In this document: positions 10,813 to 53,289 of the stretch, piece by piece | How positions within the stretch are numbered: the stretch's first letter is position 1 | How the letters are laid out: each line of letters opens with the position of its first letter | From: Escherichia phage SUT_E1620 | DNA length: 64,000 nucleotides | Sequence record: OQ939939 | Strand: one strand, 5' to 3' | Made by a program: the position numbers and the translations under genes | The notes under the pieces: model-generated | The model's input: only the letters and a program-made list of their open reading frames with translations | Databases searched by the model: none | Told to the model about the DNA's origin: nothing

Positions 10813-11023
10813 GATAACTGTTAATGAGAATCCACTTAATCATCAACATCCTTTAGTCCCAATTCTCTACAAGATTACTATAAATGGTACAGAATACCTA
10901 TTAGATGATTTCGGTAAAGAGTTTGTACAAAAAGCCATAGACGATAATAACGTTTCTATGGGAGAATTAATTAATAGAGCATCTAATTTTGATAAGAGTT
11001 GGATGTTAATTTGGAGTAACTAA
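10736..11023 (+). CDS. hypothetical protein
   Basis: 95 aa; AGGAG SD; overlaps the upstream ORF in another frame. Confidence 0.25.
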   Translation: MEYVVWSNPLALLSHKLFKTTWGRNEITVNENPLNHQHPLVPILYKITINGTEYLLDDFGKEFVQKAIDDNNVSMGELINRASNFDKSWMLIWSN

Positions 11024-11256
11024 TGGAAATTGTAGCAAGCGTCTTAGTAGTTATGTTATTCATAGTAATACTTGTATCTTTCGTTATTATGCGTAGAGCC
11101 AGAGAATTAGCAGAGGATCTAACAAAGTTACGTGGCGAGGTGGCGACTCTTAAACTACAACGTGAATCTCTCAAGCTATTCGTGGCTCAAGGTAGCCTAG
11201 AGCATGCACCGGAAGACTTCATCGTATATCTTAAACGTTACATGGGAATCAAATAA
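11023..11256 (+). CDS. hypothetical membrane-anchored protein
   Basis: 77 aa; N-terminal TM; TAATG coupling. Confidence 0.3.
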   Translation: MEIVASVLVVMLFIVILVSFVIMRRARELAEDLTKLRGEVATLKLQRESLKLFVAQGSLEHAPEDFIVYLKRYMGIK

Positions 11257-11441
11257 TGGAAACATTACTTCTTATATTACTAGGCGGTTCACTCTTAACC
11301 ATTCTAGGCTTGATAATTGTGTGCAGTCGCCTCAACGTTAAGAATCTAGAATTAAATAGTGAGAATGAGATTCTTAACCGAGAAATTAAACAACATAATA
11401 TCGCAGCTCATAAGCTGTTAGATAAACTGGAGAATAAATAA
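11256..11441 (+). CDS. hypothetical small membrane protein
   Basis: 61 aa; N-terminal TM; coupled. Confidence 0.3.
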   Translation: METLLLILLGGSLLTILGLIIVCSRLNVKNLELNSENEILNREIKQHNIAAHKLLDKLENK

Positions 11442-12052
11442 TGTTTACACAACAAACCATTAAAGTAGTAGCAGATCATGAACTCGACACATGGAATTAC
11501 AGCTTTAAAGATCTGACTGCTACAGTACAGTTTAAATCTATGCAACTGTCGTTTTTGCACACTGATCTTCAAGGTTGCAAGGAATTTCAGGCTAAGCTCA
11601 TGAATGCTCGTGCTATCTTTGGCACGGCTCGCATCCCGGCGGATAATCTGATTAATGCACTGATCGATGCAGGATACAAACTCGTGAAGACTGAAGTGAA
11701 CCGCCCGAGTACTCCAGTGACTATTCGAGATCCGTGGCAGTCGGGACCAATCGCAATGCTGAATAATTCCGATAAAAGATTAATGTCGGATATGCACAAT
11801 GTTCCTTGTGGTGGCGTGGTAAGCAATACGCAATCATATAAATTTGGGGAAGCATCTAGCGTAGACGAGTGGAATAAAGCTGGCGTTGCAATGATGGGCT
11901 TTGCAAAAGATCGCGGAGCACAAGAAGACTCCGGAGTTTCTAGGAACTCATATACTATCCGTTTTAGCAATCCTAGAAAAGAGGGAGAGCTTGAAGAAAT
12001 GTTAACGAAAGTATTCGAAGCTATTGATGCAGATAAAGCTAGAGGTCGTTAA
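11441..12052 (+). CDS. hypothetical protein
   Basis: 203 aa; coupled start. Confidence 0.35.
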   Translation: MFTQQTIKVVADHELDTWNYSFKDLTATVQFKSMQLSFLHTDLQGCKEFQAKLMNARAIFGTARIPADNLINALIDAGYKLVKTEVNRPSTPVTIRDPWQSGPIAMLNNSDKRLMSDMHNVPCGGVVSNTQSYKFGEASSVDEWNKAGVAMMGFAKDRGAQEDSGVSRNSYTIRFSNPRKEGELEEMLTKVFEAIDADKARGR

Positions 12053-12360: not shown

Positions 12361-13082
12361 GTATAAAAAAGAATTTAGCAGAGATTATTAAGTTAGCTAG
12401 AGCTTGTAATGGAAAGAATGTTTCCGAACTTAATGAGTTAGAAGCTCATGCAGTAGCATTTTGTGCAGAGTTTTATCCAGCATATATTAATGCTAGTGGG
12501 CAACCTAAATATAATAAAGATGCAGAAGAAGTCACATTAGCTCCTTCATATATTAGTTTACGTCGTCTGATTCAAACTGTTGATCCTACTATTAAAGGAT
12601 TTTCAGCAGATTCATTCCACGTCTTTGCAGATAAAGAACTCCCGCATTTTAAAGAAGGAAATGCAAAGTCATGTTTAGAATGTTATCCTAATATTCTGAT
12701 GATTCCTCAAAAGCAATGTAAATACGATCATCTCCCTAGACTTACAAAGAAAGTAGAACCACCATATTCTTCTCTATCTGAATTAAAGCTAGGAATCGTA
12801 TCTACACTTGCGCAGGTTCATCTAAGTATAGTTGACGAATCAACATCATCTAACCATATTCTAGATGCTGCTCACTTTGAAATCTTACGTGATCCTGAAC
12901 AAGCTAGAAAAGTTGCAAGATCTGTTAAGTTTGATATCGAAACAATTCTTGACACTAAACAAGAAACTAGACCTAGAGGAAGTGTAGATTATTCTGCGCT
13001 AAATTCCGAGTCATCTTACCTAGCAACATTCCTTTTCATGGCATCGAAGGGAGTCATACTCAAAGTCAATCACGATCTATAA
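12357..13082 (+). CDS. hypothetical protein
   Basis: 241 aa; last gene before the repeat-rich region. Confidence 0.35.
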   Translation: MSIKKNLAEIIKLARACNGKNVSELNELEAHAVAFCAEFYPAYINASGQPKYNKDAEEVTLAPSYISLRRLIQTVDPTIKGFSADSFHVFADKELPHFKEGNAKSCLECYPNILMIPQKQCKYDHLPRLTKKVEPPYSSLSELKLGIVSTLAQVHLSIVDESTSSNHILDAAHFEILRDPEQARKVARSVKFDIETILDTKQETRPRGSVDYSALNSESSYLATFLFMASKGVILKVNHDL

Positions 13083-17722: not shown

Positions 17723-17988
17723 TTGTTGGCCTCCCTCGTTAATCGGTGAGTGAATGATAAAGGCAATTTTCTAGCATAGGCAAATATTATTTTACCTTTT
17801 TATTTTCCTTGCCTAGCGCCTAGTTTTATGCTAACCGCGCAGCGGTACAGTAAAGAGCAAAACACGGTGAAGCCACCAGGGCGACGGGTGAAGGCTTTAC
17901 TTTAATATTACCCCACCGCATTTAGCTCGTTAGAAAGCGTTTTAGGCCGCTTAAAATTGATTGCAGTTGTTAACACTACCCATTTACC

Positions 17989-18096
17989 CTGTATATTTAT
18001 ACAGTAGGATAACATGTGGATAAGTCTGTGGATAAGTCCTTATATCGCCGCCTATCGTGTCAAATCATTTTGTGCTGTTAATAACATTGTGGATAA
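17989..18096. repeat. right arm of inverted repeat with three DnaA boxes
   Basis: TGTGGATAA at 18015, 18027 and 18088; palindrome CTGTATATTTATACAG; inverted copy of 14394-14502. Confidence 0.7.
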
Positions 18097-18936
18097 CTTA
18101 AATGATAGTGGTTCTCACTTAGGACGATAGTTTCTTATAGTTATTATTTCTATCGGTTACGATTTCTTATAATTATTATTTCTCATTAATTTATAAGTAT
18201 ATTATATATCATGAAATAGTTAGTTGGCTAATGAGATTTTCCGTGATTAATAGTCTGCTAATAGTTCCGGCTGTTACAATCCACCAGCATGATTATCATC
18301 CTAGCAACTATTAGTCTGCTATCTTTCCGATGCATACTAACAAATAAAAGTCAATTAATTTATTTCATAAAATAAGTAGTTATCCACTGGAAAATAAAAG
18401 TCAAGTGGATAACTAGGAAAATTTCATTTTTGCTTTTGGGGATAAGTTATCAACAAGGCTAGAATGCGCCTAAAACGCCCTAGAACGCGATGAAAGTTTT
18501 AGCCATGCCATTGCATTGCCTACCCTCGTTTATCGCTACCACGAGCTTTTTAGTTTTTGTCAAGTAGGGCAAGGCAAATATAAATGAAAAAATTACTTGC
18601 CAACCTGCTGGGTTTTATGGTATTCGCGCGCCCGTTTCCTTTAATTTTAGTGCGCCGCGCCCAGGTCGCCGCACGGTGTCCGGTGGCATTTTGTCTTTAC
18701 GTTTCTTTACAAAAATAAGGTTGCGCCATTTTTACTATTTGCTATTATTTATCTCGTAGGGAGGCAATGACGAACTACACGGCGGGAAGTTTACCGCCAC
18801 GCTCTTTAAAAATTGGGTATATCTTAAAGCCTATCGGCGGTAAACTTATTCATTATAAGGAATCGACGATATGAAACAGACGCTTTTGATCACTGGCAAG
18901 CCTAGCAAGGCACTAGATAGCAAAACAAAAAACTTG

Positions 18937-25015: not shown

Positions 25016-26797
25016 ATGAGTTTTTTCGCAGGAAAATTTAGTGATGGTAAAACTGTATTATCGCTAAACGCTGCTAATGGTGGTGATATAAATCAGCACT
25101 ACTCTCCAAATACTAATAGTATCTTCCACTCAGATATGCCCTTCGTCCTAGTTGATGGGACTTATGAAGCGGCTCTAGGTGATGCAGGCAATGGGTATTT
25201 TGTTACTCAGATGCCTTGGGATATTATAAACATTAAATCCAATGATCCTGGTAGAGTTATACTAACTGCTATTGAGATAAACGGTACTCATCGTGGATTT
25301 CTGAATGGTACACAATCTCAGGTTGGCCAGTTCTTATCATTCTTTGAAGATCAACCACGTGCTGGTGCTGAACTGGCTATAACATCTGCTTTTGCAATCG
25401 GTGATAGTTTAGCTCACGGTACTTATATATATAATGGTGGTCTTGGTCATGAGGAATCTATTGCTAGGCAAGGAACTGGTGGTACTTTACTACAATCTTC
25501 CGGTTTCCAGATCTTTAGACCTGGTGGTGTTTCCGCAGGTGAAGCTATTTCCAGAGCCTGGGGATTAATGGGCTTTCCTACTGGTGTTTCTACTGTTCCT
25601 ATAGATGGTGGTAACGCCGATTATTGGGAACCTAACTGGCAAGCGCCTGTTGGTTCTGCTGGTAGAGGCCATGATTGGTTTTATGTTTGTAGTTCTAATA
25701 TTCGTGGCTTCGCAGGTAAAAAAGGCGTACTACCAGATAACGTAAACGTTCTTTACCAATCTCCTGCATATCCAGAAAAAATATATGTTTGTAGAGGTTC
25801 TACTTCTAATATGGCTGCTCAGTCCGCTAGAAAGGTATATGTACAGGACTGGTATAATGTTACGCCAACTAAGGTTATTTGGTATGTGCTAAATCTGCGC
25901 TATTCTAATGGTAGTATGGGAGTTTCTGGTAATCCATTTACCGGTTCAGATATCCTAATATCTCCATCTAACTTTACTATTAAAGGTGTTAGTTTACCAA
26001 ATACAGGATATAAATTCATTAACCAGAATGCCTTTGGAAACTTAGGCTATCGCCCTGATATGGAGTATGTTGGTAATAACGCTGCGTATACCGGAGTTTT
26101 TGGTGATAATACTGCACGATGTGAATTTATCGGCTCTAGTAATGGTGGGTTGTGGTCGCCCGTTAACTATGGGGGTGCAGCTTCCCAAATTAGCCTATAT
26201 AAATTTGGTGTAGGTAAACAATGGTATGTAGATACTAATACCAACTCCATTGGTAATGAACATGGACCTGTGTGGAGTCCTAGTACTGTACCCCTCAGGT
26301 TATTCCCAGGCAACGTTGCAAGTACTTATGTAGGGGACGATATAACTCCATCCTACCCTGGTGCTGGTGACTTCTACACACCTTTGGCCACTGTTTGGTT
26401 AGGATTACCTAATGCTCACTCTACCGTTATATTAACTACTGAAGTTATTATGGGTAATCTTAATACTGCTGGAATGCCTGTGCGTACTTATGGTGGTAGT
26501 GCTTGGCAGGTACAAGGTAGACGTCAACAAAGTTATACAGCTGGTGATGGTGTATTCCATCAGATTCTTACTCTGCCACCTGGCTATCTAGTACCTTATC
26601 ACAGTACAACTTCCTATAGTTATACACAAACTTGGGCTAGTAGGCCAAATGAGTTTGCTTTCCGTAGGAACGGATATATTTATACTATTAAAAACCTTGG
26701 TAATGGCAACGTTGAGTTGGGTGTTATCATTCACGCTGCAGAAGCGGCAGCTGTTTTCTTGCCAAGACTACGTGTAACAGTTCAACGCCTAACCTAA
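25016..26797 (+). CDS. putative receptor-binding tail protein (pb5-like by position)
   Basis: 593 aa; SD AAGGAG; sits between the lipoprotein and the terminase genes; Gly/Thr-rich. Confidence 0.45.
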
Positions 26798-47277: not shown

Positions 47278-47700
47278 ATGAGTACAGAAAACCGAGTTAT
47301 TGATATTGTTGTTGATGAAAAAGTACCTTATGGTCTTATCATGCAATTTATGGATGTTGATGATAGCGTATATCCACCAACAGAAGTTCCTGTTAACTTA
47401 ACCGGATATTCACTCCGAGGAACTATTAAATCTAGCTTAGACGAGAACGCCGAGGTTCTAGCTAACTTTAAAACTCGTGTTATTGATGCTGCTCAAGGTG
47501 CTGCTGCAATTAGTCTTTCTGTTGCAGACGTTACTAATATTGGTGAAAAAGCATCTAAAGAACGTGATAAGTATAACCCAAGACAACGTTTTGCTGGTTA
47601 TTATGATATCCTAATGACTCGTGATGTAATTGGCTCTGAAGTCAGTTCTTTCCGTATTATGGAAGGTAAAGTATACATCAGCGATGGAGTAACTCAATAA
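47278..47700 (+). CDS. tail collar protein (p132-like)
   Basis: 140 aa; position before the fibre genes. Confidence 0.4.
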
Positions 47701-50700
47701 TGGCACTTAAAACTAAAATTATTGTACAGCAGATTCTGAACATAGATGACACTACAACTACTGCTAGTAAGTATCCTAAGTATACAGTAGTTTTAGGTAA
47801 TTCTATCAGTTCTATTACTGCTGGTGAACTAACAGCGGCTGTTGAAGCCGCTGCAGAGTCTGCTGCTGCTGCTAAAGATTCTGAAATAGCAGCTAAAGAC
47901 TCTGAAAATAAAGCTAAAGATTCGGAAATTCAAGCGGGTATTCATGCTGGTGCTTCTGAGGCTTCAGCAACCCAGTCTGCTGCTTCTGCTGCTGAATCTG
48001 AAAGACAAGCTAACTTATCTCAAGGTAGTGCGGAAAACTCTGCTGCTTCTGCTTTAGAATCTAAGAATTTTAAAGATGCTTCGGAACTTGCTGCTCAAAA
48101 TGCAGAGCAGAGTAAGATTTTAGCAGAGCAAGCTCAAAGAGCGGCAGAAGCTGCCCAGTCTGGTGCTCAAGCTTCTGAAAATAAAGCATCAGCATTTGCT
48201 ACACAAGCTGCTGCATCTTCAGCTTCCGCAGGAGATTTTGCTGCAGCCGCTAAACAATCTGAATTAAATGCTAAAACTTCTGAAACCAATGCCGCAACAT
48301 CAGAAGTGGAAGCGGAAACCCAAGCTGAAACTGCTACTACTGAGGCAAATCGTGCTAAGGCTGAAGCCGATCGCGCAGCTCAGATTGTAGATAGTAAGTT
48401 AGATAAAGAAGATATATCTGGCTTTATCAAAGTCTACAAGACTAAAGAAGAAGCGGACGCCGACGTTAGTAGCCGCGTACTAGGTGAAAAGATCCTAGTG
48501 TGGAACCAAACTGACTCAAAATATGGATGGTATAAAGTAGCTGGAACTGCTGAGGCTCCAGTATTAGAGTTAGTAGAGACAGAGCAAAAGCTAGTTTCTA
48601 TTAATAACGTTCGTGCAGATGACGCAGGTAACGTACAGATTACTCTTCCTGGTGGTAATCCTTCCTTATGGTTGGGTGAAGTTACTTGGTTCCCTTATGA
48701 CAAAGATTCAGGTGTTGGCTATCCTGGTGTTCTCCCTGCTGATGGCCGCGAAGTCCTTCGTGTAGACTATCCAGATACGTGGGAGGCTATCGAAGCCGGT
48801 CTGATTCCTTCTGTTACTGAAGAACAATGGCAAGCTGGTGCAACTCTCTATTTCTCCACTGGTAATGGTACTACTACTTTCCGTCTACCTGATATGATGC
48901 AGGGGCAGGCATTCCGTGCTGCTGCAAAAGGCGAGGAAAACGCTGGCAATATTAAAGAGCAAATTCCGTACATTACTATGATTAACGGTAAAGCTCCTGC
49001 TGACGATGGTACAATTACTTTAGGTAATGCTGCAGATAAAAACGTATGGAATGGTGTTGATGGTGAGGTATTACTAAGAGGTGCTTTTGGTCTTGGTGGT
49101 ACTGGTTTAATCCTTAATGAACCTGATGCCGTTTCCTTCTTTAAAGCAATGCGTGCTTTTGGTTCTGGATACTATAGAAATGACTCTGAAAGTAACCCAG
49201 TGATTCCTAAGTATTCTGCTGGATTCTACTCCAAAACTGCCGACACTCATACTTTTATCTGTTCTGCTTATGGTAATGGTGTTACTTTCGTAGCTACTAT
49301 AAATGATGCATTATTAGATGGAGAAAATCCTACTGTACATACAAATATTCTTTATGGTACAGCAAATAAACCTGATCTGAATACCGATACTCAAGGAGTT
49401 TTAGGAGTAGAGAAGGGCGGTACTGGTGCTACTACACAGAAAGGTGCTAGACTAAATCTGGATACTCCTGTAGGCAGCAGAGCTATTGGAATGCCTAATA
49501 ACTCTGATGTACTAGCTTTCATGAAATCTTCCGCAGAAAGCGGATATTATTCCTCTGGTAATATAGTTACTGGAGTTCCAGAAACTGCAGGATGGTATAT
49601 GTTCGATCTCCATGTACATGGTAAGAATGCTGCGGGAGAAATGGAGTATGGTAATGTATACTGTACAACAAGTGCTGGTGCTATTTGGTACACCTTAATG
49701 GAGGTTGGTGTATGGCAGCCATGGAGACGTTTGACCACAGAACATGGTATTATTCCTATTACTTCAGGGGGTACTGGTACAAATAATGCAAATGACGCAA
49801 GAATAAATCTAGGTCTTGGTCCTATAAATGCACCTACTTTTAGTGGTATGACTCTTCAGGGTACTAATGAAACTACTTCAGGTATAGCGGTTTTTAGTAA
49901 TAGAAATACGGAAGGGACTCAACTTTCCTATTCTAGAATGTACCATGAAATTCAGAGTGGTGTTGGTAAAACTACTATTCAGACTACAAGAGAGGGCGGG
50001 GCGACTAACTATTTCCAAATTGATGAGTATGGTAATATTGGGAATATTAACTCAATTATTGCATATGGATATATGGGATTAGGTGCTGCTAATGCTATGG
50101 GAAATGCCTCTATTGCGATTGGTGACTCTGACTCTGGGCTAAAATGGAATAGTGATGGTAACATAAGTACCATAGCAGATGGTGTAAAAATAGCCACATG
50201 GACACCTCATGGATTTTATACACATAAAATAATAAGCTCAGATGTTGCTAATACCGAAAGAGGGATGTATGTAAACGGGGTTAGGACTACCGGTGCCTCC
50301 GCTCTTGTAGCTGGGGTTGTAGAAGCTGGATCTCATGTTGGTTGGAGAGATAGAGCTTCAGGTATGCTTGTTGAATTGAATACTAGAGGAGCTGCTGCCA
50401 ATATCTGGAAAGCAACTAGATGGGGTGATCAACATGCTGGTGCATCTGACATCGTTATTTATGATGATGGATCTCCTTATTATAGAACTCTTGTAGGCGG
50501 TGGTGAATTTGGGTTCAATGGCCTTGGACAAGCTACCTGTACTTCTTGGATTAGTACATCTGATATTAGGCTTAAGGCACAGCTAAAAGAGATAGTATCT
50601 GCTAAAGATAAGGTAAAATCCCTACAGGGGTACACTTATTTTAAACGTAATAGTTTGGTTGAAGATGAGCATTCTTTTTATTGTGAAGAGGCAGGATTAA

Positions 50701-50915
50701 TCGCACAGGATGTTCAAACTGTACTACCGGAAGCTGTATATAAAATAGCTAACTCAGATCTTCTCGGTGTTAATTACTCTGGTGTTACCGCATTATTGGC
50801 TAACGCAGTAAAAGAGATGTTGGCGGATGCGGAGGCTCAGGAAGCTCGTATCAGTAATCTAGAGGAAGAACTGGCAGAGTTAAAAGCTCTAGTAGCCACT
50901 CTGGTAAATAAGTAA
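47700..50915 (+). CDS. ltfA: L-shaped tail fibre A with C-terminal intramolecular chaperone domain
   Basis: 1071 aa; N-terminal Ala/Ser/Glu-rich repeats; two GGTGA...ARxNLGL motifs; C-terminal S74-like chaperone segment. Confidence 0.75.
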   Translation: MALKTKIIVQQILNIDDTTTTASKYPKYTVVLGNSISSITAGELTAAVEAAAESAAAAKDSEIAAKDSENKAKDSEIQAGIHAGASEASATQSAASAAESERQANLSQGSAENSAASALESKNFKDASELAAQNAEQSKILAEQAQRAAEAAQSGAQASENKASAFATQAAASSASAGDFAAAAKQSELNAKTSETNAATSEVEAETQAETATTEANRAKAEADRAAQIVDSKLDKEDISGFIKVYKTKEEADADVSSRVLGEKILVWNQTDSKYGWYKVAGTAEAPVLELVETEQKLVSINNVRADDAGNVQITLPGGNPSLWLGEVTWFPYDKDSGVGYPGVLPADGREVLRVDYPDTWEAIEAGLIPSVTEEQWQAGATLYFSTGNGTTTFRLPDMMQGQAFRAAAKGEENAGNIKEQIPYITMINGKAPADDGTITLGNAADKNVWNGVDGEVLLRGAFGLGGTGLILNEPDAVSFFKAMRAFGSGYYRNDSESNPVIPKYSAGFYSKTADTHTFICSAYGNGVTFVATINDALLDGENPTVHTNILYGTANKPDLNTDTQGVLGVEKGGTGATTQKGARLNLDTPVGSRAIGMPNNSDVLAFMKSSAESGYYSSGNIVTGVPETAGWYMFDLHVHGKNAAGEMEYGNVYCTTSAGAIWYTLMEVGVWQPWRRLTTEHGIIPITSGGTGTNNANDARINLGLGPINAPTFSGMTLQGTNETTSGIAVFSNRNTEGTQLSYSRMYHEIQSGVGKTTIQTTREGGATNYFQIDEYGNIGNINSIIAYGYMGLGAANAMGNASIAIGDSDSGLKWNSDGNISTIADGVKIATWTPHGFYTHKIISSDVANTERGMYVNGVRTTGASALVAGVVEAGSHVGWRDRASGMLVELNTRGAAANIWKATRWGDQHAGASDIVIYDDGSPYYRTLVGGGEFGFNGLGQATCTSWISTSDIRLKAQLKEIVSAKDKVKSLQGYTYFKRNSLVEDEHSFYCEEAGLIAQDVQTVLPEAVYKIANSDLLGVNYSGVTALLANAVKEMLADAEAQEARISNLEEELAELKALVATLVNK

Positions 50916-50958
50916 GAGTATAGGGGAGTAATTCTCCCCTATTTACTAAGGAAATACT

Positions 50959-53253
50959 ATGTCACGTAATTTAATGCCTAAATCTGGCGCAATGGCGCCA
51001 TACATTGTAGTTAATAGAGACGCTGCTGTTGCTGGTGTTTTCTCTATTGACGGAGAAGCTGGCGCTGTTGTACTTACTTCTAAGTACTTACAAATCTCTA
51101 AATATAATTTAGATCAGCAAGCTCTAGCTACTCGTCTTACTGGAATAGATAGCTCTATTCAAAGTAATACTGAAGCTATTGGAAATATTAATACTGCAAT
51201 TGGTAGTATTAATAGTAGTCTAAGTGCCAAAGCGGCTAAGGGTGCTAATAATGATATTACAGAATTAAATGCACTTACTAAGGCTATTACTGTATCTCAA
51301 GGTGGTACAGGTGCTACTTCTCCAGATGGAGCACGTTTAGCACTAGAATTAAATCATCTCACTAAGTCAACAGATGTCTCATATATGGGATCTCCTGATG
51401 GTTCAAAGTTACTTTATATTAGTAATGAGGGGGCTTGGGGAGTTACTGCTGAGGGTGGTGGCACTAACTATGCACTACCTATTACTCAAGGTGGTACAGG
51501 TGCTTTAAGTGCAGCAGAGGCACTAGTTAAGCTAATGGATGGTAAACCATTACCATTAGCTGCAGATGGGCAAGCTCCTTATGATGCTGTAACTGTAAGG
51601 CAACTATCTAATATTTCTGGTGGCGGAAATGCTAGCATGAGTGGAGTTATGAATAACTTCATAGGTGCTGTTGAGTGGTTTAATGGTAACCGTACTAAGC
51701 TACCTGCCGGCTATATACCAGCAGACGGTCAATTAGAAAGCCGTACCGATCCTAAGACTAGGGATCTATGGGCGGCAGTTTCAGGTGGATTATTCGTAAG
51801 TGTTAGTGATACAGAGTGGATAACTAACTCCTACGGTCAGGATTACCAAAAAACAGGGAATAGAGGTGCATATTCTACAGGAGATGGCTCTACTAACTTC
51901 CGTGTACCTGATTTAAACGGCGTTAGAAGAAATGGGGATACTATGGATGGAATTCCTTTTGCAGGATATGATACCCCTTATGCAGCATTCCTTCGTGGTG
52001 ACGGTGGTGGTAGTATTAATGGAGTATTTGCCTCTGGGGCGCTAAATATGAGTGCTGCCCCTAATATAATAGGTAACTTTTCTGTAAGAGTACCAAATAA
52101 CCATGGAATGTACGCTACTGGTATTTTCTCGGGTATAAATCATACAGGATGGCCTGATGCTCCAGATGCTAGTTATTCTGGAGGAAGTGGAACAGCGGAT
52201 TTTGTAGATACTCAGAAGTATGGATATTCTCTAAATGCTGCAGCAGGTAGCCCAGTATATGGAAGAGATGGTACATCAGAGGTACGCCCTACTGCTGTTA
52301 CTGGTCTTTGGATTATCCGTGCTAACGGTTCTTTTAACGCTGCTGGTTCACAGTATCATGTTATTAATGGAGACTCTACACGCCCTGCTGATGGAACTAC
52401 TACTTATGGTGGCTTTGCGTATAGTGACTACAGAATAGGGGAAACAGTTAATCACTCAGCTTTAATAGTAAGTGCCAAAAGATTTGGTAATCCTTATAGT
52501 GTTGCTGTTCTTCAGTCCTATAATGATGAGACAGGGGATCTTGCCAACCTAGAGGTACAATCTAATGGTGTTGTTAACTTACCTACTTCGATTAATAATA
52601 AATCCTGGATACAAGCTTTTGGTGCCAACGGCCTGCATTTAGATGCTGCTACTACTGCTCAAGATCTACATACTATGCCTGGTGGAGGTTGTGGTGTATC
52701 TCAAGCAGAGAGAAATGCTATCGAGTTGAATAATAACCCAGGTGCTGTAGGTTCTGGTGGTTATGTTAACTGGCTGCAAGGATGGTGGTATGACGATAGG
52801 TTCCAGTTCGGTGCTATTCGTAGTGGTTCTACTGTATTGGATGCTGTAGCCTTATCTACATATTCTAATGCATTGGGGTTAAAACAGTGGTTCTTTAGGG
52901 CTAATGATGGTAGGATTGCTTCCACTGCAGGTACTATTGCTATTGAAGGTTCAGATATCAAACTTAAGGAGAATATAGTTAGAGCACCAGAAGGGGCCTT
53001 AGATAGAATAACTAAAATCACCCCTAGAGAGTTTGACTGGAAAGCTGGAGGTAGGCATGATAGAGGATATATTGCTCAGGAATTACGTGATGTAGATCCT
53101 ACCTATGTATATTCATCAACTGTTGGGGAAGGAGAAGAGGTATTAAACGTTAGTACATCTGCTTTGATTTCTGACTTAATAGCTGCTGTTACAACTCTTA
53201 AACAAGAGTTGGATTCTGCCAAATTAGAAATTAAAAAGCTAAAAGCTAAATAA
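50959..53253 (+). CDS. ltfB: L-shaped tail fibre B with C-terminal intramolecular chaperone domain
   Basis: 764 aa; two QGGTGA motifs; C-terminal chaperone-like segment ending in a coiled coil. Confidence 0.75.
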   Translation: MSRNLMPKSGAMAPYIVVNRDAAVAGVFSIDGEAGAVVLTSKYLQISKYNLDQQALATRLTGIDSSIQSNTEAIGNINTAIGSINSSLSAKAAKGANNDITELNALTKAITVSQGGTGATSPDGARLALELNHLTKSTDVSYMGSPDGSKLLYISNEGAWGVTAEGGGTNYALPITQGGTGALSAAEALVKLMDGKPLPLAADGQAPYDAVTVRQLSNISGGGNASMSGVMNNFIGAVEWFNGNRTKLPAGYIPADGQLESRTDPKTRDLWAAVSGGLFVSVSDTEWITNSYGQDYQKTGNRGAYSTGDGSTNFRVPDLNGVRRNGDTMDGIPFAGYDTPYAAFLRGDGGGSINGVFASGALNMSAAPNIIGNFSVRVPNNHGMYATGIFSGINHTGWPDAPDASYSGGSGTADFVDTQKYGYSLNAAAGSPVYGRDGTSEVRPTAVTGLWIIRANGSFNAAGSQYHVINGDSTRPADGTTTYGGFAYSDYRIGETVNHSALIVSAKRFGNPYSVAVLQSYNDETGDLANLEVQSNGVVNLPTSINNKSWIQAFGANGLHLDAATTAQDLHTMPGGGCGVSQAERNAIELNNNPGAVGSGGYVNWLQGWWYDDRFQFGAIRSGSTVLDAVALSTYSNALGLKQWFFRANDGRIASTAGTIAIEGSDIKLKENIVRAPEGALDRITKITPREFDWKAGGRHDRGYIAQELRDVDPTYVYSSTVGEGEEVLNVSTSALISDLIAAVTTLKQELDSAKLEIKKLKAK

Positions 53254-53260
53254 AATAAAA

Positions 53261-53289
53261 CCCCAGTGGACAATCCACTGGGGTTTTTT
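53261..53289. terminator. bidirectional rho-independent terminator
   Basis: CCCCAGTGGA-CAA-TCCACTGGGG hairpin flanked by an A-run and a T-run, between convergent gene blocks. Confidence 0.65.

Follow-up and report, generated by a model that had tools for sequence, protein, structure and literature searches.

The window analysed here, a 64,000-nt stretch of DNA, shows 100% identity to vB_SabS_Sds2 (Epseptimavirus sepoy), a phage already published. The region at 47278–53287 contains three consecutive plus-strand genes, with a hairpin in the second intergenic spacer and a terminator after the third gene:

47278..47700, plus strand: ltfC, 140-aa collar or fibre-attachment protein (PF23926 LtfC, E 1.9e-15)
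47700..50915, plus strand: ltfA, lateral fibre protein of 1071 aa, proximal and anchored to the tail, annotated in MW357609 as “L-shaped tail fiber”
50920..50942, unstranded: 9-bp GC-rich hairpin inside the 43-nt ltfA-ltfB spacer
50959..53253, plus strand: ltfB, 764-aa second (putative branch) fibre protein (phrog_6921 tail fiber, E 6e-136)
53257..53287, unstranded: bidirectional intrinsic terminator closing the late tail operon

The phrog match of ltfC is described as “collar tail protein for L-shaped tail fibre attachment.” This gene is located directly upstream of ltfA, and its stop codon overlaps the ltfA start codon (TAATG). The first-pass annotation had reported two consecutive fibre genes, and the open reading frames at 47700–50915 (plus strand, 1071 aa) and 50959–53253 (plus strand, 764 aa) are intact and agree with it exactly. 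An AAGGA ribosome-binding site lies 7 nt upstream of the ltfB ATG codon. The stem of the spacer hairpin is kept and its loop varies in 12 relatives; its assignment as an intrinsic terminator was rejected because no T-run is present on its 3' side. The terminator downstream of ltfB has a stem of 14 bp and a T-run on each strand, and its counterpart is annotated as a terminator in Sepoy.

The gene order ltfC-ltfA-ltfB is that of phage DT57C, which, like DT571/2, carries branched lateral tail fibres composed of LtfA, LtfB, and LtfC (Golomidova et al., 2016, PMC4728585) and whose tail structure has been described (Ayala et al., 2023, PMC10713586; PDB 8hqz). The proposed similarity to branched-fibre relatives is borne out by the matches of LtfA 1–433 and full-length LtfB to the DT57C proteins and by the position of ltfC directly upstream. 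Unlike that of DT57C, the host of the phage studied here is Salmonella. BF23, chosen for comparison in the first-pass annotation, is a single-fibre phage (PMC4728585). The single long-fibre gene attributed there to T5 was found as such: T5 has one ltf gene, coding for a protein of 1396 aa.

The following modules were delineated in LtfA:

47700..47819, plus strand: LtfA aa 1–40, predicted LtfC-collar-inserting segment common to all T5-like fibres, its role assigned from the DT57C structure (PMC10713586)
47820..48389, plus strand: LtfA aa 41–230, Ala/Ser/Glu-rich trimeric coiled-coil shaft that differs between phages
48393..49019, plus strand: LtfA aa 232–440, putative branch module for the docking of LtfB, with homology to the proximal long-fibre protein of Kuraviruses
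49977..50279, plus strand: LtfA aa 760–860, imported hypervariable patch, candidate receptor-contact region

The first 40 residues are 90–100% identical in 12 relatives and 70% identical in T5. The shaft, composed of 32% Ala, 13% Ser, and 12% Glu, shows 40–100% identity among the relatives; in DT57C the helix of LtfA begins at T40 (PMC10713586). Residues 1–433 match the cryo-EM chain of DT57C LtfA (8hqz_d, residues 1–433) with 80% identity (E 4e-213). Two segments resemble the L-shaped fibre protein pb1 (Ltf) of T5 (PDB 4UW7/4UW8; Garcia-Doval et al., 2015, PMC4690869), namely the anchor and coiled coil (LtfA 1–230 and pb1 1–215, about 46% identity) and LtfA 458–558 (pb1 386–487, 40% identity); the chaperone aside, no similarity of LtfA to pb1 was found beyond them. 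In particular, no part of LtfA or LtfB was found to resemble the bullet-shaped receptor-binding domain of T5 (pb1 970–1263) in sequence, and 4UW7 and 4UW8 were recovered neither by sequence and profile searches nor by the fold search with the LtfB model. The LtfA protein differs from that of DT57C in the lack of 19-aa repeats and in the presence of the pb1-like segment, followed by modules of the Spc35/JNwz02 LtfB type. The patch at aa 760–860 is 48–78% identical to Sepoy and S132, while the remainder of the protein is 98–100% identical. Positive selection on this patch was rejected, since the synonymous divergence there is also very high (dS 1.05 vs. 0.03–0.34 elsewhere), which points to an imported cassette.

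In LtfB two regions were distinguished at this level:

50959..51258, plus strand: LtfB aa 1–100, putative attachment module at the N terminus; its residues 1–45 are common to the Kuravirus distal fibre
51772..52305, plus strand: LtfB aa 272–449, hypervariable cassette, candidate receptor-binding region

Comparison with DT57C LtfB yielded a full-length match with 36% identity overall and 90% in the first 40 aa. Residues 1–98 gave nothing significant against PDB even at E ≤ 10, so the predicted docking interface has no structural template. The cassette at aa 272–449, which overlaps the C-terminal part of a collar-like domain (aa 222–334), is only 20–57% identical to the corresponding regions of PRF-SP13, S132, NBEco001, DaisyDussoix, and ECOP18, with flanks of 90–100% identity and change points at aa 272 and aa 449.

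Both fibre proteins terminate with predicted intramolecular chaperones:

50559..50915, plus strand: LtfA aa 954–1071, predicted cleavage T953|S954, predicted catalytic residues S954 and K959
52951..53253, plus strand: LtfB aa 665–764, predicted cleavage G664|S665, predicted catalytic residues S665 and K670

The chaperone-like nature of these C termini, already noted in the first-pass annotation, is confirmed by matches to PF13884 (Peptidase_S74) at LtfA 954–1014 (42 bits) and LtfB 665–717 (43.8 bits), the curated gathering cut-off of this family being 22 bits. The Ser-Lys dyad looked for in the follow-up is present: S954/K959 of LtfA and S665/K670 of LtfB occupy the alignment columns of S1264/K1269 of T5 pb1, residues confirmed in the T5 sequence itself and in the paper describing the self-cleavage mechanism (PMC4690869). 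Like pb1 with its catalytic motif S-D-x-R-L-K, the proteins studied here carry the T5-like S-D-I-[RK]-L-K, unlike the S-G-x-x-x-K motif of DT57C, in which a Peptidase_S74 chaperone likewise ends both fibre proteins. Autoproteolysis of LtfA and LtfB would follow the scheme worked out for DT57C and T5. The C-terminal region of LtfA, including the chaperone, matches that of S16 gp37 (6f45_A, E 1e-12). In the AF2 model of LtfB the C terminus matches ICA/IMC folds, with an ICA fold and a C-terminal trimerising helix. The PF13884 domain, the Ser-Lys pair, and the C-terminal coiled-coil helix are shared with other ICA/Peptidase S74 systems, such as K1F endosialidase (3gw6), MyRF (7dc3), and T-even gp37 of the S16/T2 type (6f45), and the LtfB model superposes on MyRF at 2.9 Å over 116 residues. 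Unlike the chaperones of K1F endosialidase and MyRF, which sit on a sialidase and a transcription factor, those studied here are attached to fibre tips of unrecognised fold.

The module at LtfA 232–440, which includes a tail-collar-like domain (aa 318–424), is 88–100% identical in all 13 two-gene relatives of the identity profile, and it matches residues 248–460 of 7z47_D (E 9e-40), belonging to the long fibre of Kuravirus SU10. Long-fibre pairs of Kuraviruses include gp14/gp15 of phiEco32 and gp12/gp13 of SU10 (PDB 7z47), along with gp13 of EP335. Their proximal protein resembles LtfA 232–440 (40–44% identity in a tblastn search), and the distal one resembles LtfB, at about 30% identity along the whole protein and about 70% within its first 45 aa; the two genes lie next to each other in the order seen here. 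Unlike T5-like phages, Kuraviruses are podoviruses with a fibre anchored on the adaptor through a different N-terminal anchor, and the proximal protein (786 aa) is shorter than LtfA. Among public phage genomes, LtfA 232–440 was found in 153 T5-like records (at least 60% identity) and 86 Kuravirus records. The LtfB N terminus (aa 1–100) occurs in 148 T5-like records at a coverage of at least 80%, and its aa 1–45 in about 87 Kuravirus records (66–71% identity), assigned by their typical Kuravirus length of roughly 76 kb. LtfC is present at 60% identity or more in about 470 T5-like records; the putative LtfA docking module and the LtfB N-terminal module are found in almost equal numbers, in about 150 of them. 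Two-gene branched fibres are common among T5-like phages. In Kuraviruses the paired modules are located in adjacent genes, e.g., at 10963–11589 and 12638–12778 of OQ555404. DT57C combines the same Kuravirus-like docking module with the partner N terminus.

Taken together, the region is very likely the ltfC-ltfA-ltfB lateral (L-shaped) fibre cassette of a T5-like phage, of the branched type known in DT57C. LtfA trimers would be anchored at the tail tip, with their first approximately 40 residues set into the LtfC collar, and extended by the Ala/Ser/Glu-rich coiled coil of aa 41–230, while the conserved module of aa 232–440 may serve as the dock for the N terminus of an LtfB trimer. With LtfB docked at this module, each of the three fibres would be forked. 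LtfB probably hangs off LtfA, providing the virus with two different host-recognition tips; the physical branch is modelled on the work on DT57C and T5. In DT57C, both the branch and a pair of O-antigen specificities have genetic backing (PMC4728585), and cryo-EM resolved only the N terminus of LtfA, LtfB density being absent from the tail core (PMC10713586). Past the fork, LtfA (aa ~575–953) and LtfB (aa ~190–664) would continue into unrelated distal regions, most likely binding two different surface polysaccharides (O-antigens) and aiding passage of the phage across the O-antigen layer towards its receptor in the outer membrane. In each protein, the intramolecular chaperone at the C terminus is predicted to direct folding and trimerisation and would then cleave itself off by the Ser-Lys mechanism, at T953|S954 with K959 in LtfA and at G664|S665 with K670 in LtfB.

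The Kuravirus relationship could also be read as a serial arrangement, with LtfB joined end-to-end to LtfA and alone touching the host. In descriptions of SU10, a proximal gp12 trimer and a distal gp13 trimer with one elbow make up the long fibre, which is presented as a single elbowed fibre and not explicitly as a fork; the homology of LtfA 232–440 to gp12 248–460 and the full-length similarity of LtfB (about 30% identity) to Kuravirus distal proteins would fit the same geometry. Against it, about 630 aa of LtfA extend past the shared module, with variable cassettes and a predicted self-cleaving chaperone of their own, and the distal LtfA region of DT57C sets O-antigen specificity independently of LtfB (PMC4728585). 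Moreover, the homologue of the LtfA distal half is used as the LtfB distal half in Spc35 and JNwz02, which makes it a bona fide tip module. We therefore consider the end-to-end fibre improbable. An independent LtfB fibre, with the tail tip or the collar and not LtfA as its direct attachment point, appears about as improbable. A weak low-contour density near the tail tip of DT57C, tentatively ascribed by the authors to folded-back LtfB (PMC10713586), would be compatible with it. However, the LtfB N terminus has no homology to T5 proteins and accompanies LtfA 232–440 nearly one-to-one in two unrelated groups (148 vs. 153 and ~87 vs. 86 records), and the identity profile did not show the LtfA module in T5 or Eps7, each of which has a single fibre gene. 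In addition, LtfB-dependent infection requires LtfA in DT57C (PMC4728585).

The reading of ltfB as a decaying duplicate or pseudogene without a function of its own, for which one could cite the label “hypothetical protein” in MW357609 and the single fibre ORF named in the Sds2 paper, is refuted at the sequence level and can be regarded as negligible: the 764-aa frame is intact and preceded by a ribosome-binding site, the protein has its own docking N terminus, a distal region unrelated to that of LtfA and a chaperone with the Ser/Lys pair intact, its Sepoy orthologue is a tail fibre protein in RefSeq, and 86 nucleotide but only 8 amino-acid differences separate the two (dN/dS 0.033), indicating strong purifying selection incompatible with a pseudogene.

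Returning to the forked fibre, the central segments of its two arms had been described as unrelated. This is valid for the distal halves, as LtfA 568–1071 and LtfB 193–764 have the chaperone domain alone in common (22.5% identity, E 0.005), but a tail-collar-like domain of about 100 aa is shared by both proteins (LtfA 318–424 and LtfB 222–334, 30% identity, E 4e-10). PDB profile searches with LtfA 575–953 and LtfB 193–664 revealed no solved homologue; all matches of the distal regions were to an unmodelled DT57C chain, to SU10 gp12 in its motif region, and to aa 21–65 of S16 gp37. These searches, and the fold search with the LtfB model, found no recognisable fold for either region, so the designation “receptor-binding” rests on position and variability. 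Two host-recognition specificities with O-antigen as the ligand are suggested by the DT57C genetics (PMC4728585).

The distal half of LtfA is homologous to that of LtfB in Spc35, JNwz02, and GreteKellenberger (38–43% identity), and the distal half of LtfB is about 30% identical to those of both LtfA and LtfB of DT57C, resembling the two about equally. Distal modules occupy the A position in some phages and the B position in others, and the distal halves may be able to sit on either scaffold. Their relatives were also found in Kuraviruses and in Salmonella and E. coli assemblies, where they lie on phage-like contigs of ~100 kb that are probably phage-plasmids. One may tentatively suppose, at somewhat less than an even chance, that the distal receptor-binding halves are position-independent plug-in units. 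If the GGTGA...ARxNL motif is a conserved structural joint, any distal unit could fold on either scaffold, and fibre specificity across these phage groups might be readable and engineerable from cassette identity alone.

A two-gene side-fibre locus of this kind is real but ordinary, and nothing here is new in kind, since the two-gene branched fibre, its chaperones and its mosaicism were described for DT57C in 2016. The additions are small: the movement of distal modules between the A and B positions and a correction of annotation, as the second fibre gene of Sds2 is labelled “hypothetical” in GenBank and the published description counts one fibre. Sds2 is a candidate therapeutic phage against Salmonella Abortusequi, and with LtfB as a second fibre, host-range reasoning for it should count two adhesins.

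The GGTGA motif is widespread in phage fibres, as is familiar from the older literature on tail-fibre mosaicism. Four well-formed copies were located:

49416..49460, plus strand: LtfA motif 1, aa 573–587, GGTGATTQKGARLNL, main mosaic breakpoint
49767..49817, plus strand: LtfA motif 2, aa 690–706, GGTGTNNANDARINLGL, point at which alignment resumes behind a cassette that varies in length
51301..51351, plus strand: LtfB motif 1, aa 115–131, GGTGATSPDGARLALEL, identity drop at aa 119–121 in 7 relatives
51490..51534, plus strand: LtfB motif 2, aa 178–192, GGTGALSAAEALVKL, identity recovering at aa 178 in ECOP18, HZ_ZJUN2, and Sw2

Two copies of GGTGA...NLGL per protein had been reported. This count is correct for the motif in its extended form, but only one copy ends literally in NLGL (LtfA 703). 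LtfA also contains a degenerate copy, GLGGTGL, at aa 466. In 20,000 shuffles the GGTG string was expected 0.08 times in LtfA (3 observed, P = 0) and 0.10 times in LtfB (2 observed, P = 0.005). The motif is present in T5-like proteins studied here and in SU10 gp12; a literature search on it in tail fibres returned nothing relevant.

Cassette exchange may be the source of new specificities, and the junctions that recur most often lie at these motifs. At LtfA aa 577–580 the identity in 30-aa windows falls by 0.63–0.80 in 10 of 14 relatives; the cassette of aa 588–689 is not alignable, whereas motif 2 is alignable in 13 of the 14. The proposal that GGTGA marks exchange sites stands in part: three of the four well-formed copies coincide with the most frequent breakpoints, but other breakpoints lack the motif, including the borders of the most variable patches (LtfA 760–860 and LtfB 272–449). 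Enrichment of breakpoints at the motifs is not significant (3 of 12 clusters vs. 1.2 expected; binomial p ~0.11, our estimate from the counts of breakpoint clusters), so only the coincidence of the most recurrent breakpoints with motifs is claimed. The breakpoint map provides usable junctions for the engineering of chimeric fibres, at LtfA aa ~577, ~787/857, and 953 and at LtfB aa ~120, 178, 272, and 449.

The fibre locus of Escherichia phage SUT_E1620 contains two consecutive tail fibre genes, as the first-pass annotation had stated, and is organized as follows:

47278-47700: ltfC, a 140-aa ORF directly upstream of ltfA, its stop codon overlapping the ltfA start (TAATG)
47700-50915, plus strand: ltfA, a 1071-aa ORF
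50920-50942: hairpin in the 43-nt ltfA-ltfB spacer, with a 9-bp GC-rich stem (ATAGGGGAG / CTCCCCTAT); the spacer also carries a good AAGGA ribosome-binding site
50959-53253, plus strand: ltfB, a 764-aa ORF
53257-53287: strong bidirectional terminator 3' of ltfB

The 140-aa protein matches PF23926 and is LtfC, the fibre-anchoring collar protein. Residues 1-433 of LtfA are 80% identical to DT57C LtfA in the cryo-EM structure 8hqz (E 4e-213), and LtfB is homologous to DT57C LtfB along its entire length. The ltfC-ltfA-ltfB cluster is the locus type described by Golomidova et al. (2016; PMC4728585) in "about half" of T5-like genomes sequenced by then, with two fibre genes instead of the one of T5, a receptor-recognition region and a self-cleaving chaperone in each product, and LtfB proposed to hang from LtfA. 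The comparison with DT57C bears out the assignment to branched-fibre relatives, and T5 indeed has a single fibre gene, whereas this phage has two. The initial observation is confirmed and its interpretation supported.

The window shares 100% identity with vB_SabS_Sds2 (MW357609) as well as with Salmonella phage vB_SenS_PYC03 (OK288022); identity with Salmonella phage Sepoy is 94.7%, and all three belong to Epseptimavirus sepoy (Demerecviridae). A feature of this kind has been described before, and the genome itself is published; only a corrected annotation and a map of breakpoints are added here. In MW357609, ltfA is labeled "L-shaped tail fiber" and ltfB "hypothetical protein", and the Sds2 paper mentions a single fibre ORF (PMC9424859); the Sepoy orthologues of both genes are tail fibre proteins in RefSeq. 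The annotated starts of the LtfB orthologues in JNwz02 (L011 7684) and HZ_ZJUN2 (L012 6832) are five codons short; the ATG lying further upstream, and its ribosome-binding site, are the same as for ltfB in the window.

The stem of the spacer hairpin is kept in 12 relatives with a variable loop (TAATT, TACTC, TAAC, TTTC, ATTA); in DT57C the hairpin differs, and Sw2 lacks one because its two genes overlap. No T-run was seen 3' of the hairpin, which was therefore rejected as a classical terminator. It may serve mRNA stabilisation or processing, or tune the LtfA:LtfB ratio.

Both fibre proteins end, as had been proposed, in a chaperone domain, matched by Pfam Peptidase_S74 ("chaperone of endosialidase") above the curated threshold. 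Alignment with T5 pb1 places S954 and K959 of LtfA (motif S-D-I-R-L-K) and S665 and K670 of LtfB (S-D-I-K-L-K) in the columns of S1264 and K1269, which Garcia-Doval et al. (PMC4690869) established as the catalytic residues. Self-cleavage is therefore predicted at T953|S954 in LtfA and G664|S665 in LtfB. The C-terminal region of LtfA, including the chaperone, matches by sequence that of phage S16 gp37 (6f45_A, E 1e-12). An AlphaFold2 model of LtfB 193-764, built from a 64-sequence alignment (mean pLDDT 74 for the model), has a confident C-terminal domain.

Comparison of the locus with 16 relatives by sliding-window identity divided LtfA into five regions. Residues 1-40 are universal, their DT57C counterpart threading into the LtfC ring; 41-230 form a variable Ala/Ser/Glu coiled coil; 232-440 are 88-100% conserved across the two-gene phages of the profile, including DT57C, and missing in T5 and Eps7, whose fibres come from a single gene; 458-558 are T5 pb1-like; and the sequence from about 575 onward is highly mosaic. 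The sole fibre gene of Eps7 (L014 4001-6864) is annotated as 807 aa without a chaperone domain. Matches to LtfA in tblastn run past its annotated stop, in separate pieces, to residue 1052, pointing to a frameshift or a sequencing mistake in this old record.

A homologue of the 232-440 module is found in Kuravirus, in the proximal protein of the long fibre (SU10 gp12, PDB 7z47_D 248-460, E 9e-40), and the Kuravirus distal fibre protein begins with a stretch 66-71% identical to the first 45 residues of LtfB. The two Kuravirus genes are adjacent and in the same order as here (e.g., OQ555404).

Records carrying each module in the phage collection (duplicate GenBank and RefSeq records included)
LtfC at ≥60% identity: T5-like, at least about 470; Kuravirus, –
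LtfA 232-440: T5-like, at least 153; Kuravirus, at least 86
LtfB N-terminus: T5-like, at least 148; Kuravirus, at least about 87

This near one-to-one co-occurrence supports a functional pairing. Seen in two kinds of virion that are unrelated, it is the strongest sequence-level evidence available, though not proof, that LtfA 232-440 contacts the LtfB N-terminus. A serial fibre of proximal LtfA followed by distal LtfB, as the SU10 paper words it, is unlikely, since LtfA continues for a full 630 aa past the putative docking module, as a distal part that includes a chaperone of its own. Attachment of LtfB independently of LtfA is likewise unlikely, given the co-occurrence and the DT57C data (PMC4728585, PMC10713586). 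That ltfB is a pseudogene or mere duplicate is excluded by its comparison with Sepoy: 86 nucleotide and only 8 amino-acid differences (dN/dS 0.033), a sign of strong purifying selection on the entire LtfB.

The putative receptor-recognition segments, proposed to give two host specificities, are unrelated to each other, as claimed: LtfA 568-1071 and LtfB 193-764 have the chaperone domain alone in common (22.5% identity, E 0.005). A tail-collar-like domain of about 100 aa is shared by LtfA 318-424 and LtfB 222-334 (E 4e-10), lying in LtfA within the conserved module, outside the variable part. PDB profile searches and a fold search with the LtfB model found no solved structure or recognisable fold for either distal region. 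By analogy with DT57C and T5, O-antigen would be the ligand of these fibres.

Each protein has a hypervariable cassette between near-identical flanks: LtfA 760-860 (48-78% identity with Sepoy and S132) and LtfB 272-449 (20-57% with PRF-SP13, S132, NBEco001, DaisyDussoix and ECOP18). In LtfA 760-860 dS reaches 1.05, against 0.03-0.34 elsewhere, which indicates an imported cassette; adaptive change in place was rejected.

The linker motif GGTGA...NLGL had been described as present twice in each fibre and as a likely exchange site. Its extended form does occur twice per protein (LtfA 573 and 690; LtfB 115 and 178), but the literal NLGL ending only once; GGTG is far commoner than in shuffled sequence. 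In LtfA, identity collapses right behind GGTGA-573 in 10 of 14 relatives, and alignment resumes from the 690 motif; in LtfB, it falls behind GGTGA-115 in seven relatives and is regained at GGTGA-178 in three. The most recurrent junctions are therefore at motifs. Others are motif-free (LtfA 176, 425, 787, 857 and 952, the last being the chaperone boundary; LtfB 44, 272 and 449), and of distinct junctions 3 of 12 fall at motifs versus 1.2 expected (p about 0.11, a binomial estimate, with many relatives also sharing breakpoints through common descent). The exchange-site idea is thus reasonable, but only partly supported.

In its distal half, LtfA is similar to LtfB of Spc35, JNwz02 and GreteKellenberger (38-43% identity to their distal halves), while those of DT57C LtfA and LtfB are about equally similar (~30%) to that of LtfB in the window. 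Distal halves thus appear not to be tied to one scaffold, in keeping with the report of a viable LtfA-LtfB fusion in DT571/2 (PMC4728585). Contigs of ~90-100 kb in Salmonella and E. coli assemblies also encode full-length relatives of the distal half of LtfB (33-49% identity), often two distinct ones on a single contig; fibre modules are therefore shared well beyond T5-like phages. The one contig type examined, encoding protein P0017 (L020 8001-10307, L021 8001-10307), has a GpA-type terminase, with a portal gene also present in L020, the longer copy. The contigs are probably SSU5-like phage-plasmids.

Elsewhere in the window, an ORF-free stretch of ~0.8 kb (~17750-18560) adjoins the pre-early A1/A2 genes and contains several inverted repeats and clustered DnaA-box-like 9-mers (TGTGGATAA / TTATCCACA) at 18015, 18027, 18088, 18380 and 18405; it presumably resembles the part of the T5 terminal repeat that carries the injection stop signal. 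A pb5-type receptor-binding protein and a neighbouring receptor-blocking lipoprotein gene are encoded at 25016-26797 and adjacent to it. The receptor of the pb5-type protein is the terminal one, with the lateral fibres assisting the phage in reaching it; the Sds2 paper inferred BtuB as the target from similarity to EPS7, BSP22A and SPC35 (PMC9424859).
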